Shown here: one piece after another, positions 754-19,235 of the stretch
Layout: each line of letters begins with the position of its first letter
How positions within the stretch are numbered: the stretch's first letter is position 1
Source of the DNA: a virus
Length of the DNA stretch: 64,000 nt
IMG/VR virus record: IMGVR_UViG_3300045988_047070
Direction: 5' to 3' (one strand)
The notes under the pieces: model-generated
What the model was told of the DNA's origin: nothing
Database searches by the model: none
Seen by the model: only the letters and a program-made list of their open reading frames with translations
Made by a program: the position numbers and the translations under genes

Positions 754-1054
754 AATATTAAGTTTTTAATGATAACGTATATAAGGGGGTATTGTTATAA
801 AAATTTTATAAAATAAAAAATTAGGGGATATAATTGTGAATGTAGAGAGTAGTATATATATTGTATTATATAGATTTGAGTGTAGAAACTAGTATATACA
901 AACACCCCTCCCCCATCATGCATCAAGGAAACACCCCCGGTACTTATGCATCAAATCAATTTATCTATCAGCTGATTGTGATTAATCAAGCAGTTACAAC
1001 GGAAGGCGGTTGTAATGTAGAACTACTGCTGAGGGGCAGACAGCCGAGACGACT

Positions 1055-1462
1055 ATGAAGTGTGCAATCATGAGTCTAGAAGCTAAGCAAGCAGAGAACG
1101 GTAATTGGTACGTGAACATCCTAGCACAGCCGGAAGGTGATCCGTTTGCTGAGGAGTTGAAGTATCGTATGTGGTGTAGCGAAACACTAGCTAACAAGCT
1201 AGCTGCCAACGCACCTGAGACTATCGAACTCCAGAAGGTACGTGTAGAGGTTACTCCGTACCAGAAGGTATCTGAGGACGGTTCAATCTCAGAGAACGTA
1301 TTCACCAGTCTGTCTGTTGTATGCAGGCAGTTCAAGGGAGAGTACGTGGATGAGCCACAAGCGATGGCAGACAAGCTACGCAGGAATCTGCTGCGTGATG
1401 GGCTTATCGTAGAGGTAGACGTAGACCCGTACGAGGGAGCTACAGGTGATCTACCAAACTAA
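1055..1462 (+). CDS. early protein, paralog of 2633..3250 (function unknown)
   Basis: ORF track. MKCAIMSLEAKQAENGNWY...YRMW..E...KLAANAPETIELQKVRVEV aligns by eye with MKCIIIGHEFAEANTGNLY...YVMF..E...ALEARFPKEIYLQEIRMQT. The region is visibly more GC-rich than its neighbours. The antisense ORF 994..1374 is judged spurious. Confidence 0.7.
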   Translation: MKCAIMSLEAKQAENGNWYVNILAQPEGDPFAEELKYRMWCSETLANKLAANAPETIELQKVRVEVTPYQKVSEDGSISENVFTSLSVVCRQFKGEYVDEPQAMADKLRRNLLRDGLIVEVDVDPYEGATGDLPN

Positions 1463-1464
1463 AG

Positions 1465-1491
1465 GGGAAGAGCTTCGGCTCTTTCCTTTTT
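1465..1491 (+). terminator. rho-independent terminator after 1055..1462
   Basis: GGGAAGAGC-TTCG-GCTCTTTCC forms 9 bp including one G-U pair. It is followed by TTTTT at 1487-1491. Confidence 0.65.
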
Positions 1492-1500
1492 AATCCAATC

Positions 1501-1553
1501 ATGCACCAAGTTTATTTCCCTCTTAGTCGATTGTGAAGGTATATTGTATTTAT
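1501..1553 (+). repeat. ATGCACCAAGT box, copy 1 (about 53-nt conserved intergenic element)
   Basis: ATGCACCAAGTTTATTTCCCTCTTAGTCGATTGTGAAGGTATA aligns with copy 2 at 2388-2440. Both copies start about 10 nt after a terminator hairpin. Confidence 0.5.
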
Positions 1554-15442: not shown

Positions 15443-15534
15443 AAGCAAAAAATAGTACATTGGATAAATTAGCATTTGTAGGCTTAATTATCTTCTTTAT
15501 AATGTGTTTATTCTTTGCATGGTGTATAACATAA
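15439..15534 (+). CDS. 31-aa membrane micro-protein, ATGA-coupled
   Basis: Hand translation gives MKAKNSTLDKLAFVGLIIFFIMCLFFAWCIT. The ATG overlaps the TGA of 15053..15442. Confidence 0.35.
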   Translation: MKAKNSTLDKLAFVGLIIFFIMCLFFAWCIT

Positions 15535-17899
15535 CAGTTAAAGATAAAAGCTGTCGGGTCAAACGACTCCTTACCCGTGGTAAGATGAAGGAGAGTGGTA
15601 TTGTAGCTGCACACTTAAAAAGCAATAAGGCAGCGTATGTTTTATTTCGATAAGTCTGATCAACTTATGATATTACGTAGACAAAGAATACAGGATGCCG
15701 TAGGGATAGTATATATTCTCCAATATATACATCGAGCCAAGAGCATGATAACCTATTATGAAGTTTATTCTTTTACTTCTGAAAAGTTAATAGGAAAATG
15801 GGTCAGTGTGCAAAGCCCATAAATCTTGAGAACCGGTTGGTGAAGATTAAAAGACACGATCTAGCGCAGCAGCGACGAAGACAAACATTGCAAGGGGTTA
15901 CTACATAGTAAAGAGATCCTTAAGTAAGATCAAATGAATCCCCTTAAGAATCCGTAGGCACTATCAAGTGCGGTTTCAAGTAAGGACGAAATGTAGTTTA
16001 AAGGCAAACAAGTTCCATCTGTTTGACCTAACTTTAATAGACCGAATAGCGTCCATGACGGGTCCAAACCGTCATTAAACAAATAGCTACCTTTAGTGTT
16101 CCACTCTACAGTTGTTACTATTTTTGTAGTATAGTAATAAGGATCTAGACAACATAACATTTGGCTTAGTTATGGATGAGTGTATGAAGAAAGGGTATTT
16201 AAAATCAAGAAACTGGTAGGATATACTAAAAGCTGAGTGGCTATGGCCCATATATAATAATAGAAGAGGTAACGGACTTCTATAATTACTTATGACAGGT
16301 TATCCGGAGCAGATGCCAAGTCTGTGCTTGCAAGAGCTTATAAAGATGTTCACTAGCGTAGAAAACTAGTTAAAATAGTCTTTATAAGGGGGTACTTCAG
16401 GTGCTGGGTATTAACTACGTAGGAGTGATACTACGTCTTTTAAGATACGCTCTAAAGGATCAGGACAGGTACGATTTTAAATAAAACTGACCGAGTTTTA
16501 TGTTCAATACTAAAATCAGTATAGAGTTATGTCAGTATAAGTCATGGAAACGAACATACGCAGGAGAATAGTGGCGAAAAGACTACCTCAACCCCTAGAG
16601 ACACCGTGGCGAAGTGTATAGGGTTCGTATAAAAAGAGAAACTCACCGCTCTGGTAAACTAAAGGTGTGAGTAAGTTTAGTTTAAGCTTTCTTTAATAGA
16701 TATAACGAAAGTAGGGCTTTTTATAGTCAAGGAGCTAAATTCAAGACTAATAAAATAGTGTAATAGTAAGGGAGTATTAATAGTGCGGCTTACAATATCC
16801 TTTTGTAAGTATAAATGAACCACTTATAGTATTTATTTACTCTGGGAAGGAATTCCTATCACTGGCTCGAGAGTTAACGAGACTCTTAAACAAAAGCGGA
16901 ATTAACATGTCTAACTAACGTAGGTTCAACAACCGAATAACAAATTTGTGGATGTCCTCGCTAGGGAAACTGAATGCGACCACAACTTGGCGAATGCGAT
17001 TGCTTAGTAGTATCAGGGTATAATACGCAATATTATATGTTCGAGAGAAAGCGTCTCATTGAAGCTTGTAAATCTTTAAGAGTGAACGAAAGTGAACTAT
17101 TACTTATAGACCTATTTATAAGCGAGAGTAAATGAGAAGAGGTGAAAGTCCTCGATCTTCATCCAAGTAAAATAAACAAAATCCTAGTCAAGGTTACGTT
17201 GGTAGCTCTGTACTTAGTAATAAGTATATCTAGCGTAAGAGGTAGGCGTTAGTGAATAACTATATGAGACCTATAAGTTATTACAAATAACAAAGACAAA
17301 GATGGCAATTCCTTTGATCGCCTTGCAGTTTTAGCAACGTTCTGTAAAAACGACCGGACATAACTACTTGCCCGATAAGACAGTTTTAATCATTAGTAAA
17401 GTTTATATGAATCTAGATAGGTCAATCTATACTAGTTCTATCCCTAGGATATAGTCTTGCTAACTTATTTACTTTACTATTTTTATCTGAGTAACCAGAA
17501 AAAACGTGTTGATTATTACGGATCTTCTGTAATAGAGATTACAGAATATAGTACAGCTTGGAATCAGAACCTAGAATACTCATCGATGAGTTTCATTAGC
17601 TCTGGTCACAATGCAGTATGCGGTTCCAAAGTAAGATATGACTTAGTAAACTTATAAACCTGTCTCGTTTATAAGGAGTATACCGCAATAGCGAATTATC
17701 AAGAACGGAATTATTTTGCTTATCATATAAATTAAAGTAAAAACATATTTGCATCTTTCCTTGCATAACTTGAATGTTACACGACCGTGGTTTTTAACCT
17801 ATCTGATATAAGATGATGATAAATCGTGACGAAACGCATAGGGAAAGATGTGAGAAAATTTTCATTAATTATTAACTTATCAAAAGGAGGAATTTAAAA
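15535..17899 (+). ncRNA. 2.4-kb ORF-free, helix-rich block (candidate large structured RNA locus; class unknown)
   Basis: No credible ORF is present. Hand translation of 16201-16320 shows TAA, TAG and TGA in all three plus frames. Many local helices and GAAA-type loops are present (see findings). Confidence 0.4.
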
Positions 17900-18454
17900 A
17901 TGGCAAATGTAAATTATAATTTAGTAGTAGCATCTCAATTAGGTGCATTGTTAGGTATGAACTTGATCCGGATTAAGCGGACTAATGTGGATGCAGATTA
18001 TTCGAACAAAGAGCGGGAAGGCAAGCAACGGCTTGCAAATCCTATCTGGTTACATGGCGTAGAACGCATTCGCATCCGACAAGCAGAACTTGTTGATGTA
18101 GGTGACGGTAAAATGGTAGTCCAATTTAACCGTGATCCTAAGCTTCAGCTTGATTTAGCAGGAGCTAAAGACATTAGTGATATTATTAAGAAACCGACAG
18201 TTCAGGAAGTAGTCTCTGCAATCGCAAGCGAGTCTACCGGTTTGCCTCAGTTCTTTACTGATGACAAAACTGCAACTGAGTTAACGATTTCATTCAATGA
18301 GCGGTCACGGAAGGAGATTAGCTCTATGATGGAAACGTTGTCTCGCCAGGCACAAGCATTAGCTGATGCCAATCGTGCTATGGAAGATTCATGCAGATTG
18401 AACATGGCCCAATATGGTCAGTCTGTAAACTTTCAAAGCGTTAATATTGATTGA
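17900..18454 (+). CDS. hypothetical protein (184 aa), strong SD
   Basis: ORF track. AAGGAGG lies 10 nt upstream of the ATG. Confidence 0.7.
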   Translation: MANVNYNLVVASQLGALLGMNLIRIKRTNVDADYSNKEREGKQRLANPIWLHGVERIRIRQAELVDVGDGKMVVQFNRDPKLQLDLAGAKDISDIIKKPTVQEVVSAIASESTGLPQFFTDDKTATELTISFNERSRKEISSMMETLSRQAQALADANRAMEDSCRLNMAQYGQSVNFQSVNID

Positions 18455-18969
18455 AGATGGAAAATCTCAGCAGATCCTCTAGATTAAATCTAGAACGAAT
18501 CCTAGCTGATGAAGATATATTCAATTCCTTTTTGTTTAATGACAAAAAGCCCGGAACTAGAAGTCTAAAAGACGATGGTTCCTTTGTCATTGGTGCGACT
18601 TGCTTTGAATGGTGGAATCACTTCATAGGTTGTGAAAAGAAGTTAAGTTTCCACGATTTAGTAGTGCATCTGATAAACTTCATGGCTGGAAACGGCAAAA
18701 ATAGAAATGATTTTGCATTAGACGGCTTATATCAGGATTTCGTTAACTTTACACTTAAGCAGGATGATAAGAATCGGATGGTAGATATTCTTCTCACAGC
18801 TTACTTGTATGGTTATAAAGAGATCCAAAAGGAGGGGAAGGTTCCTTCTGAACAAACGATATTAGCAGCTGTTACTAAACAAGTGCGAAATCCCGATGGT
18901 GTAGCTGTACTTACAGCTAATGGTCCAGTCTTTTTAGGTAAAGACTTAAAATTCTACGAAATTGAGTAA
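18451..18969 (+). CDS. hypothetical protein (172 aa)
   Basis: ORF track. It has a 4-nt overlap with the upstream gene. Confidence 0.65.
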   Translation: MKMENLSRSSRLNLERILADEDIFNSFLFNDKKPGTRSLKDDGSFVIGATCFEWWNHFIGCEKKLSFHDLVVHLINFMAGNGKNRNDFALDGLYQDFVNFTLKQDDKNRMVDILLTAYLYGYKEIQKEGKVPSEQTILAAVTKQVRNPDGVAVLTANGPVFLGKDLKFYEIE

Positions 18970-19235
18970 GATATTATACGTTGCTTTGAATTAGGAAGGT
19001 GTAATAGTGATAGTAAATATACTTATTCTTTTAAAAAAACAAAATGTAAAGACTCAGGAAGGTTAGAGTCTTTAATGGTCACGATGTGGTGTCTATAACA
19101 AGATACTAAGTTACGGAAAGCTCTGAGAATAAGAAAGAGATGTTACATCGATGTAAACGTGACCACTCGTTTCTACATATTGGACGCATTATCAAAATGT
19201 TCTCCCGTATAAATTATTAACTAAAAAATTTATAT

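Follow-up and report, generated by a model that had tools for sequence, protein, structure and literature searches.

A probably RNA-gene-rich early region in a crAss-like phage of the family Suoliviridae

We analyzed the early region (positions 754-19235) of the IMG/VR virus record IMGVR_UViG_3300045988_047070, a stretch of 64,000 nucleotides (nt) referred to below as the window, and found that this region is probably rich in RNA genes. Short orphan protein genes with a fast turnover appear to be interspersed there with structured RNAs that are conserved and with signals for transcription and processing. The original prediction had suggested a set of non-coding RNAs (ncRNAs) interleaved with the early genes, and this is borne out by curated RNA families within the gaps, a two-piece transfer-messenger RNA (tmRNA) and four further stretches that covary. 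The first 20 kb of the window are 95.8% identical to the phage cr10_1 (NC_055875.1), with 92% of the query covered, and the cr10_1 lineage is assigned to Crassvirales, Suoliviridae, Boorivirinae, Canhaevirus. By this match, the window is a crAss-like phage of the Suoliviridae. The direction of transcription is rightward from 754 to about 34000, and the GC skew turns at about 34 kb.

The sequence between credible open reading frames (ORFs) of the early region had been put at about 6.75 kb. The 13 gaps indeed total 6,751 nt, corresponding to 35.1% of 1-19235 and 36.5% of 754-19235. We also tiled the window permissively, taking all ORFs of at least 50 amino acids (aa) on either strand as coding, longest first. 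This left 30.0% of 754-19235 uncovered versus 2.7% of 19236-64000 (7.1% of 19236-34000 and 0.5% of 34001-64000). The claimed contrast in non-coding content between the early region and the rest of the window therefore exceeds 10-fold, is independent of any judgement of ORF credibility and is confirmed as robust. Two entries in the list of gaps required adjustment. The gaps 9264-9847 and 10373-10731 are separated by a minus-strand gene that lies inside an intron, and the ORF 8054-8248, which had been accepted as a gene, overlaps the gene 7701-8129 and was dropped by the permissive tiling, so that the gap behind it may begin at 8130. A gappy early architecture was found in all relatives examined. 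Known RNA families make up 14.0% of the 6,751 nt, new elements supported by covariation 38.3%, and terminator-like or promoter-like motifs 4.1%.

In an Rfam check of the spacers, which had been proposed along with the prediction, the following elements in the gaps passed curated thresholds: the Hatchet ribozyme, RAGATH-9, a group I intron and tRNA-like elements. Apart from the intron, which is described with the tmRNA, these elements and a further cloverleaf just outside the region are:

7322..7448, + strand: Hatchet ribozyme (RF02678; Rfam covariance model)
8302..8480, + strand: RAGATH-9 RNA (RF03146; Rfam covariance model, full model 1-173)
4395..4473, + strand: tRNA-like element in which acceptor and T arms are present and the anticodon region is aberrant (Rfam tRNA, 37.3 bits versus 29)
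10646..10711, + strand: tRNA-like cloverleaf with a 4-nt loop on the anticodon arm (Rfam tRNA, 46.9 bits versus 29)
21161-21228: tRNA-like cloverleaf just outside the region (Rfam tRNA, RF00005, 54.1 bits versus 29)

The Hatchet ribozyme is complete (model 1-133 of 133) and scored 102.7 bits against a gathering score of 51 (E = 8e-21). In the cmscan alignment, the conserved core CAAGCAUGUGGGGCGU...CGUGCGGACGUUAAAAUCAUGC is present, P2-P4 are paired and P1 is shortened to 3 bp. Hatchet ribozymes cut at the 5' base of P1, so that the upstream product ends in a 2',3'-cyclic phosphate and the downstream RNA begins with a 5'-OH (PMC6154101). From this family description, cleavage is predicted at the 5' edge of the element, at about 7324/7325. 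A Hatchet match was obtained in every scanned relative that covers the position, and the gene downstream of it is not conserved across subfamilies. RAGATH-9 scored 94.8 bits against a gathering score of 75.2. It was also found, at 81.6-134 bits, in cr10_1, L014/L015/L092, L113, L115, L116 and cr4_1, the last with 134 bits. In three lineages the 3' end of RAGATH-9 lies 20-30 nt before an ORF. The products of these ORFs in the window and in cr4_1 have no BLASTP similarity, so that RAGATH-9 is not a dedicated, riboswitch-like leader of one gene family, an explanation that we considered and rejected.

The tRNA-like element at 4395-4473 has a fold z-score of -2.6, and the syntenic element of cr50_1 is annotated as tRNA-Cys. 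The other two (10646-10712 and 21161-21229) fold as full cloverleaves with 5-bp anticodon stems closed by 4-nt loops. They cannot decode with such loops and were therefore filed as tRNA-like rather than as tRNAs. ARAGORN found no normal anticodon in any of the three, giving either no call or a 2-nt 'anticodon'. Cloverleaf structures are substrates of RNase P and RNase Z, and the non-decoding cloverleaves may be kept only as processing signals for these enzymes. An equal non-decoding form is carried by cr10_1 (L001 21643-21710), and a similar one by cr50_1 (L036 10308-10379).

The two gaps around 10 kb are mostly accounted for by a tmRNA gene and an intron that splits it:

9629..9704, + strand: tmRNA exon 1, from the 3' tRNA-like domain to the middle of the T-loop (alignment A6 with intron-less alleles)
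9705..10409, + strand: group I intron of 705 nt in the tmRNA T-loop (RF00028; boundaries good to about 1 nt)
9848..10372, - strand: HNH homing-endonuclease gene, antisense within the intron (phrog_1271, E = 2.5e-23)
10410..10640, + strand: tmRNA exon 2 (ARAGORN after splicing, alignment A6)

In the intron-less alleles of cr10_1, cr50_1 and L014, the T-arm is intact at the place where the window holds the 705-nt insert. The T-arm sequence GAGGGTTCGAyTCCCTC is broken in the window after 9704 and resumes at 10410. ARAGORN found nothing in the unspliced window and, once 9705-10409 was removed, called a permuted tmRNA with the tag GNNFVTDYTQLAVA followed by a stop, which is encoded by the reading frame 10573-10617; the frame has a resume codon and its product a hydrophobic C-terminus. 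Exon 2 contains, in this order, the end of the acceptor piece (CCCTCCAGCTCCAC), an intervening segment, the 5' tRNA-like domain (GGGGCTG...) and the tag frame. After splicing in silico, the 3' domain reads actattaggacgagggttcgattccctccagctccac and the 5' domain ggggctgcatgg..., with an intact T-arm and an acceptor stem GGGGCUG/CAGCUCC that includes the G3-U70 pair. The group I intron match (9637-9920) scored 65 bits against a gathering score of 50; its 5' part (9637-9704) is really tmRNA exon and is weakly paired in the alignment. By eye, the exon sequence UUCGAU(U) could form P1 of the intron with GGUCGAG (9711-9717), and the base just before exon 2 is G10409, as a candidate terminal G of the 3' splice site.

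Permuted tmRNAs were called by ARAGORN in cr10_1, with the same tag GNNFVTDYTQLAVA as in the window, in cr50_1 (GNNFVTDYTAIGA) and in the L014/L092 lineage (ANYESEDYLVE), each tag followed by a stop. The Rfam model tmRNA_permuted (RF04321) matched intron-less relatives, including four further lineages, at 49.1-60.3 bits versus 47, a narrow pass, and had no match in the unspliced window sequence. GenBank records of relatives already annotate 'tmRNA', so the tmRNA itself is not new, and the intron-split allele is what goes undetected. The HNH gene is annotated as an HNH endonuclease in cr55_1. The cassette at 9632-10718 is 92% identical to those of cr55_1 and cr1_1 (Culoivirus), while the 2.4-kb element of these phages, described below, is only about 56% identical to that of the window. 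This is the pattern expected from intron homing with co-conversion, which we suggest as the origin of the cassette.

Several smaller observations concern the same locus. In L014 (2387-2657) and L092 (17042-17312), a RAGATH-7-associated RNA (110 bits) lies inside the permuted-tmRNA locus, where it adjoins the acceptor piece on its 3' side in the segment removed between the two tmRNA pieces. Upstream of the window's tmRNA gene, a direct repeat (AGAGCTATAAGCC) occurs at 9282-9303 and 9480-9501, 198 nt apart, and a perfect 10-bp palindromic hairpin lies just 5' of the gene (9601-9626) and is 88-91% conserved in cr50_1 and cr55_1. RAGATH-22, which is present at the syntenic place in both of these phages, had no match and no sequence similarity in window 9264-9636.

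The largest share of the new structured sequence comes from a 2.4-kb stretch, to which three smaller elements are added. By their conservation and covariation, the four are candidates for new RNA classes:

15535..17899, + strand: conserved ORF-free multi-domain structured RNA locus of 2.4 kb (synteny, covariation, no Rfam family)
4539..4712, + strand: multi-stem structured element (covariation in alignment A7)
7449..7690, + strand: three conserved hairpins between the Hatchet ribozyme and gene 7701 (covariation in alignment A5)
19071..19170, + strand: 100-nt four-helix element (covariation in alignment A4)

An ORF-free stretch of 2.1-2.5 kb is found at the syntenic place of 15535-17899 in cr50_1, cr55_1, cr1_1, L014/L015, L112-L116 and cr4_1. 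The lineages examined for this element were 11 from Boorivirinae and cr4_1 from Loutivirinae; L112-L116 are from public assemblies and L014/L015 from IMG/VR. The order of the locus is an ECF sigma factor gene, genes for two proteins (about 490 aa, then about 130 aa), the stretch without ORFs and a gene for a protein of about 185 aa. The proteins flanking the element have no match in Pfam, PHROGs or PDB sequences. A BLAST search of the phage collection recovered the element only in four Boorivirinae genomes, and an element profile gave colinear matches in the cr4_1 gap (E = 1.6e-13 and 3.4e-6). Identity to cr10_1 is 99.4% in the element and 95.8% over the window's first 20 kb. Compared with L014, it diverges by 0.27, the flanking genes by 0.30-0.44 and the sigma factor gene by 0.15, and its substitutions show no codon periodicity (p = 0.45; genes p = 2e-71). 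The comparison of spacers across related phages, also proposed earlier, thus favored the prediction: wherever a gap could be aligned to divergent lineages, its conservation equals or exceeds that of most genes.

We searched for stacked antiparallel covarying columns in 15 sequences from 11 lineages and found three or more doubly compensated pairs in each of 16 local helices; a parallel-register control gave 0 such helices. An earlier scan of 25 sequences had given 14 helices versus 1 in the control, and the core helices still covary when Loutivirinae sequences are added. In the domain 15530-15830 (alignment A2), 18 of 37 pairs changed on both sides and 97.3% of cells are paired; in the domain 16835-17210 (A3), the values are 22 of 66 pairs and 96.1%. 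Slid registers gave at most 4 pairs and 0 of 500 shuffles matched the observed values, and this margin is large even though RNAalifold predicted the structures from the very alignments used for testing, so that the observed values are raised in comparison with the controls. In the Watson-Crick-defined helices of the element, G-U exceeds A-C by 54:25, which favors a plus-strand RNA. An Rfam scan of 21.5 kb gave nothing at E <= 1 for 15535-17899. A scan of the 2.4 kb alone with permissive filters gave best scores of 17-23 bits against gathering scores of 55-76 (E >= 1.8), and there was no covariance-model match to GOLLD, ROOL, OLE, HEARO, group II introns, RNase P or rRNA. Most likely, the element would yield one or several structured RNAs that act in trans and are needed early in infection; in kind it resembles the abundant and persistent long non-coding early transcripts of the phage phi14:2 and the large phage-associated RNAs GOLLD and ROOL.

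Among the smaller elements, 4539-4712 has 45 pairs, of which 11 changed on both sides, with 98% paired; slid controls gave at most 1 and none of 500 shuffles matched. It contains the long invariant unpaired stretches CAACCTCATCGTAG and CTGAACGAATG and an insert of variable length, and has no Rfam match. In 7449-7690, 6 of 22 pairs are compensatory. This stretch is 86-88% identical to cr50_1, while the 2.4-kb elements of the two phages are only about 57% identical. The element at 19071-19170 has 22 pairs, 14 of them changed on both sides, with 98.5% paired (slid controls at most 3, 0 of 500 shuffles). A covariance model built here from it (R1) scored 97-113 bits at 7 loci and was single-copy and syntenic in all Boorivirinae lineages searched. 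The model found no second copy, so that a repeated module was rejected, and it found none in the Loutivirinae loci searched. The gap that holds this element (18970-19235) diverges by 0.215 from L014, compared with 0.30-0.44 for genes. The hairpin loop GAGAAUAAGAA of the element (19124-19134) resembles the loop GAAUAAGAAAUA of RAGATH-9 (8446-8457), and the two loops could be a common recognition motif.

The RNA modules recur in relatives that have few of the same proteins. All related early regions scanned hold RNA families within their own gaps. Hatchet, RAGATH-9, tmRNA and tRNA-like elements occur in like order in L113, L115 and L116, and RAGATH-22 is found in cr50_1 and cr55_1. The early region of cr4_1 holds RAGATH-7, three Hatchets, RAGATH-9 and a group I intron. 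There, a single unannotated gap of 1.6 kb (L093, 2334-3999) contains RAGATH-7 (160 bits), two Hatchets and a tRNA-Leu, followed by a gene. By contrast, of the 15 proteins of 754-10731, tblastn found a homologue of none in the cr4_1 early region and of 3 each in cr50_1 and cr55_1. In a Pfam scan of 20 early proteins, only the ECF sigma factor and an AAA ATPase were recognisable. With RNA families in every relative scanned and so few protein homologues, the RNA modules form the conserved backbone of the region. In cr4_1, the third Hatchet is at 5874-6002 and the group I intron at 8918-9207, beside a minus-strand ORF. An Rfam match to the abiF RNA (48.7 bits versus 37) was also seen in L092, on the minus strand at 7428-7464, among leftward genes.

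Putative transcription signals occupy parts of the first gaps:

946..981, + strand: promoter-like motif, copy 1 (ATGCAyCAAr-N-ATTGTGA; pattern search), ahead of the first plus-strand gene
1463-1492, + strand: terminator hairpin and T-run, immediately 3' of the stop codon of gene 1055-1462
1501-1536, + strand: promoter-like motif, copy 2 (pattern search), invariant in alignment A1
2355-2376, + strand: terminator-like hairpin after gene 2170-2361 (terminator scan)
2388-2424, + strand: promoter-like motif, copy 3 (pattern search)
3257-3276, + strand: terminator-like hairpin (terminator scan)
3318-3349, + strand: upstream repeat TTGrGTTAAyTAACATTATTAACTTTTAAA (repeat families D1, D4 and D7)

The pattern ATGCAyCAAr-N(18-30)-ATTGTGA has 3 matches in the 64 kb versus 0 expected, all on the plus strand and one in each of the first three gaps. 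The copies have an equal count and order in relatives, including L091, and two exact matches are present in L092. Copies 2 and 3 come after terminator hairpins that lie directly 3' of stop codons and have covarying stems; for the hairpin at 1463-1492, alignment A1 contains the compensatory changes GAGCTTCGGCTC / GGCTATAGCC / GGGCTTCGGCCC. We suggest that this motif is an early promoter. The upstream repeat (also written TTG...TAACTTTT) has further copies, shorter versions among them, at 6708-6739, 17868-17885 and 19211-19229, and the copies lie 20-35 nt 5' of the start codons at 3358, 6749, 17900 and 19236. This repeat may be a promoter of the Bacteroidetes -33/-7 type. The ECF-type sigma factor gene (12513-13082; Sigma70_r2 and Sigma70_r4_2 domains) encodes the best-conserved early protein, with 54-61% identity across genera and subfamilies, which suggests a phage-directed promoter switch.

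Taken together, these elements suggest a model of RNA-level processing. The three promoter-like motifs, together with host-type promoters a short way upstream of some genes, would drive early transcription, and read-through of leaky terminators would give long RNAs. These would then be cut at the RNA level into stable pieces. The Hatchet ribozyme would cleave itself at its 5' edge and leave the downstream RNA with a 5'-OH, host RNase P and RNase Z would cut at the tRNA-like cloverleaves, and the intron would splice itself out, which would be needed for the tmRNA T-arm to form. The products would be short mRNAs and stable ncRNAs, the latter comprising RAGATH-9, both pieces of the tmRNA and the large element, either whole or as separate domains.

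Several points weigh against an RNA-gene-rich early region and its processing. We infer transcription, strand, transcript ends, cleavage and splicing from the sequence. A share of 43.6% of the 6,751 gap nt has no assigned element, chiefly in 754-945, 1537-2169, 2425-2632, 5824-6099, 6451-6707 and 9264-9628. Homologues at these stretches are at least 78% identical (mostly at least 87%) and yield 0-5 compensated pairs; 754-1054, 1537-2169, 2425-2632 and 9264-9636 yield 0-2, with relatives too similar for covariation testing. The gap 1463-2169 is a mosaic with some pieces absent from cr10_1. RAGATH-9, as described above, is not linked to a single downstream gene family, and the bias from folding and testing the same alignments belongs here as well. 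The early transcripts of the Cellulophaga crAss-like phage phi14:2 share no upstream motif (bioRxiv 10.1101/2020.03.07.982082). The stable helices that the original prediction had seen in the spacers did not hold up as a distinguishing feature. In 150-nt windows, the mean z-score of the minimum free energy was -0.84 in gaps versus -1.60 in coding sequence, and thermodynamic stability was rejected as evidence for RNA structure. Under the block-swap dinucleotide shuffle used, the mean z-score is negative even for coding sequence, so that only the comparison between the classes was used.

One alternative is that the gaps are coding after all and that the genes were missed through an alternative genetic code, very small ORFs or frameshifts. 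Stop-codon reassignment and suppressor tRNAs occur in crAss-like phages, several ORFs of 30-76 aa are present in the gaps, and the cr10_1 annotation has a 61-aa coding sequence, gp22, within the large gap. However, no single reassignment of TGA, TAG or TAA opens any of the gaps. We rejected it as their cause, the longest frame in the 2,365-nt gap being 79 codons under the standard code and at most 139 with reassignment. The lack of codon periodicity applies to 18970-19235 as well as to 15535-17899, and independent gene calling on five further contigs left the large-gap stretch empty except for one 55-aa call. All 21 ORFs of at least 25 aa on either strand of 15535-17899, gp22 included, have stops, frameshifts or lost starts in other lineages. 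No conserved micro-ORF was therefore found there, and the possibility that the spacers encode conserved small proteins, raised with the original prediction, was not supported by the large gap. The gp22 product (YP_010110829.1) corresponds to window 15637-15822, and since it has no start codon any more or is interrupted early in 7 of 7 divergent lineages tested, the annotation in the reference genome is probably spurious. We consider it very improbable that the gaps are coding. The spacers might instead be mostly filler, in which a few RNA elements lie dispersed among decayed genes, recombination scars and the mosaic joints of cassettes acquired independently. Which genes are present in 754-7250 is strongly lineage-dependent, the gap 1463-2169 combines pieces absent from cr10_1 with short islands common to distant crAss-like phages, and several gaps are more divergent between close relatives (82-93% identity) than the proteins are. 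The 44% of gap sequence that is unassigned also fits this explanation, which cannot, however, account for the assigned 56%. The large element (0.27) and 18970-19235 (0.215) diverge less than most flanking genes, the covariation far exceeds the controls, and the RNA modules keep their order across lineages whose early proteins are unrelated. Filler is thus an improbable explanation for most of the spacer sequence.

The conserved non-coding stretches could also act as DNA, for example as a replication origin, a packaging site, protein-binding arrays or promoters, to which we give a slim chance. Terminator and promoter-like motifs fill parts of gaps 1-4, and the large element lies in the neighbourhood of a replication module, upstream of a DNA polymerase and of the AAA ATPase, which has weak clamp-loader-like or helicase-loader-like matches. 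Against a function as DNA, the double substitutions that preserve pairing in at least 16 local helices indicate a folded single strand, and G-U is tolerated twice as often as A-C, a signature of plus-strand RNA and not of duplex DNA. The large element also has no repeat arrays, the slope of the GC skew is unchanged there, and five elements belong to RNA families defined by covariance models. If the large element acts as RNA, a further question is whether it is a single molecule. There is close to an even chance that 15535-17899 consists of perhaps 5-10 independent small structured RNAs, clustered in tandem and separated from one another by processing. Helices with good support span less than 150 columns, save one domain-closing helix of about 180 nt. 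Above 150 columns, helices are no more frequent than in the control, and pairing over more than 400 columns does not exceed it either, so that a string of locally folded domains is demonstrated and not one closed fold. In addition, the conserved sequence falls into blocks of 100-300 nt with variable or lineage-specific linkers between them, a block of about 150 nt (16330-16480) is absent from three lineages, and tandem ncRNAs separated by ribozymes occur elsewhere in these phages. A cluster is disfavored by the constant order of the blocks in every lineage and both subfamilies and by a scan that found no plus-strand terminator-like site inside the element. No Hatchet, tRNA-like or other known processing element was found in 15535-17899 either. 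A candidate long-range helix, 16268-16272/17368-17372, has 4 compensated pairs that represent a single two-clade switch only. A tentative and less probable reading is that the element is transcribed as a single multi-domain ncRNA across Suoliviridae, which together with Hatchet, RAGATH and tmRNA would form an RNA-based programme for early host takeover. Among structured RNA families of bacterial viruses, ribosomal RNA aside, none known would then come near it in size, and no early protein of these phages, which abound in the human gut, would be as conserved as the takeover programme.

The early region resembles several known systems. In phi14:2, two long early intergenic regions are transcribed in sense above most genes, from the earliest time point onward and persisting late (bioRxiv 10.1101/2020.03.07.982082). 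Both cases are long intergenic regions among the early genes of a crAss-like phage, which supports expression in the window by analogy only. However, phi14:2 does not belong to the Suoliviridae, and its study shows expression, while the window shows conservation, structure and family membership. The Hatchet ribozyme and the RAGATH motifs are reportedly the subject of Weinberg et al. 2015 and 2017. They were described from metagenomic sequence, and most RAGATH functions are unknown (PMC11061315, PMC6154101). The elements of the window and its relatives are members of these families (RF02678, RF03146, RF03098, RF03159 and RF03105) by curated thresholds; the difference is that here they have a defined home, the early region of crAss-like phages of the Suoliviridae, where their order is fixed. 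In the library searched, we found no prior link of crAss-like phages with Hatchet, RAGATH motifs or large structured RNAs, and crAss-like phages are absent from the two structured-RNA surveys checked. In-vitro cleavage by Hatchet aside, no biological role is known for Hatchet and most RAGATH motifs, which are orphans, and a fixed early-region home in one crAss-like family offers a concrete system for studying their function.

GOLLD and ROOL are large, conserved, ORF-free structured RNAs of phages and prophages that are often located near tRNAs and have no known function (PMC5737381). The 2.4-kb element is likewise large, conserved, ORF-free, structured and phage-encoded, but it has no covariance-model match and is known here as local domains and not as a global fold. 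The 2.4-kb locus is about 3-4 times longer than GOLLD and ROOL. In reference genomes, this large structured-RNA locus is unannotated or mis-annotated as a small protein. The crAss-like phages are among the most abundant human-gut viruses. The tmRNA has the features of known two-piece tmRNAs, with the acceptor piece before the coding piece, G3-U70 and a tag with a hydrophobic end, and its intron lies in the T-loop. For Clostridium botulinum, K. Williams in 2002 reportedly described a group I intron that interrupts a tmRNA gene in its T-loop. The gene in the window differs in being phage-encoded, in the antisense HNH gene within the intron and in the non-decoding cloverleaf directly after the coding piece, and it shows that ARAGORN misses such intron-split two-piece genes. 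tRNAs punctuate polycistronic transcripts in mitochondria, and tRNA-linked stable RNAs are found in phage T4. By analogy, the cloverleaves between genes of the window may be cleavage signals for RNase P and RNase Z, with the difference that the two with 4-nt anticodon loops would serve only as structures. If the processing model is true, the region would be a natural case of ribozyme and tRNA-like punctuation of phage transcripts.

A few further observations concern gaps outside the elements described above. In the gap 1463-2169, the blocks 1562-1730 and 1903-2139 are replaced or absent in cr10_1. Within it, 1564-1617 is 91% identical to cr55_1 and 1726-1783 is 94-96% identical to cr6_1 and Bacteriophage sp. 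MT835473, and 2076-2137 is a long, almost perfect hairpin. In the remainder of the window (19236-64000), 30828-31068 is the sole stretch of at least 150 nt without an ORF of at least 50 aa. The gap 5824-6099 is closed by a T-arm-like hairpin (TTAAGTTCGAATCTTAA) with a T-run at 6048-6078, which may be a tRNA remnant or a terminator.

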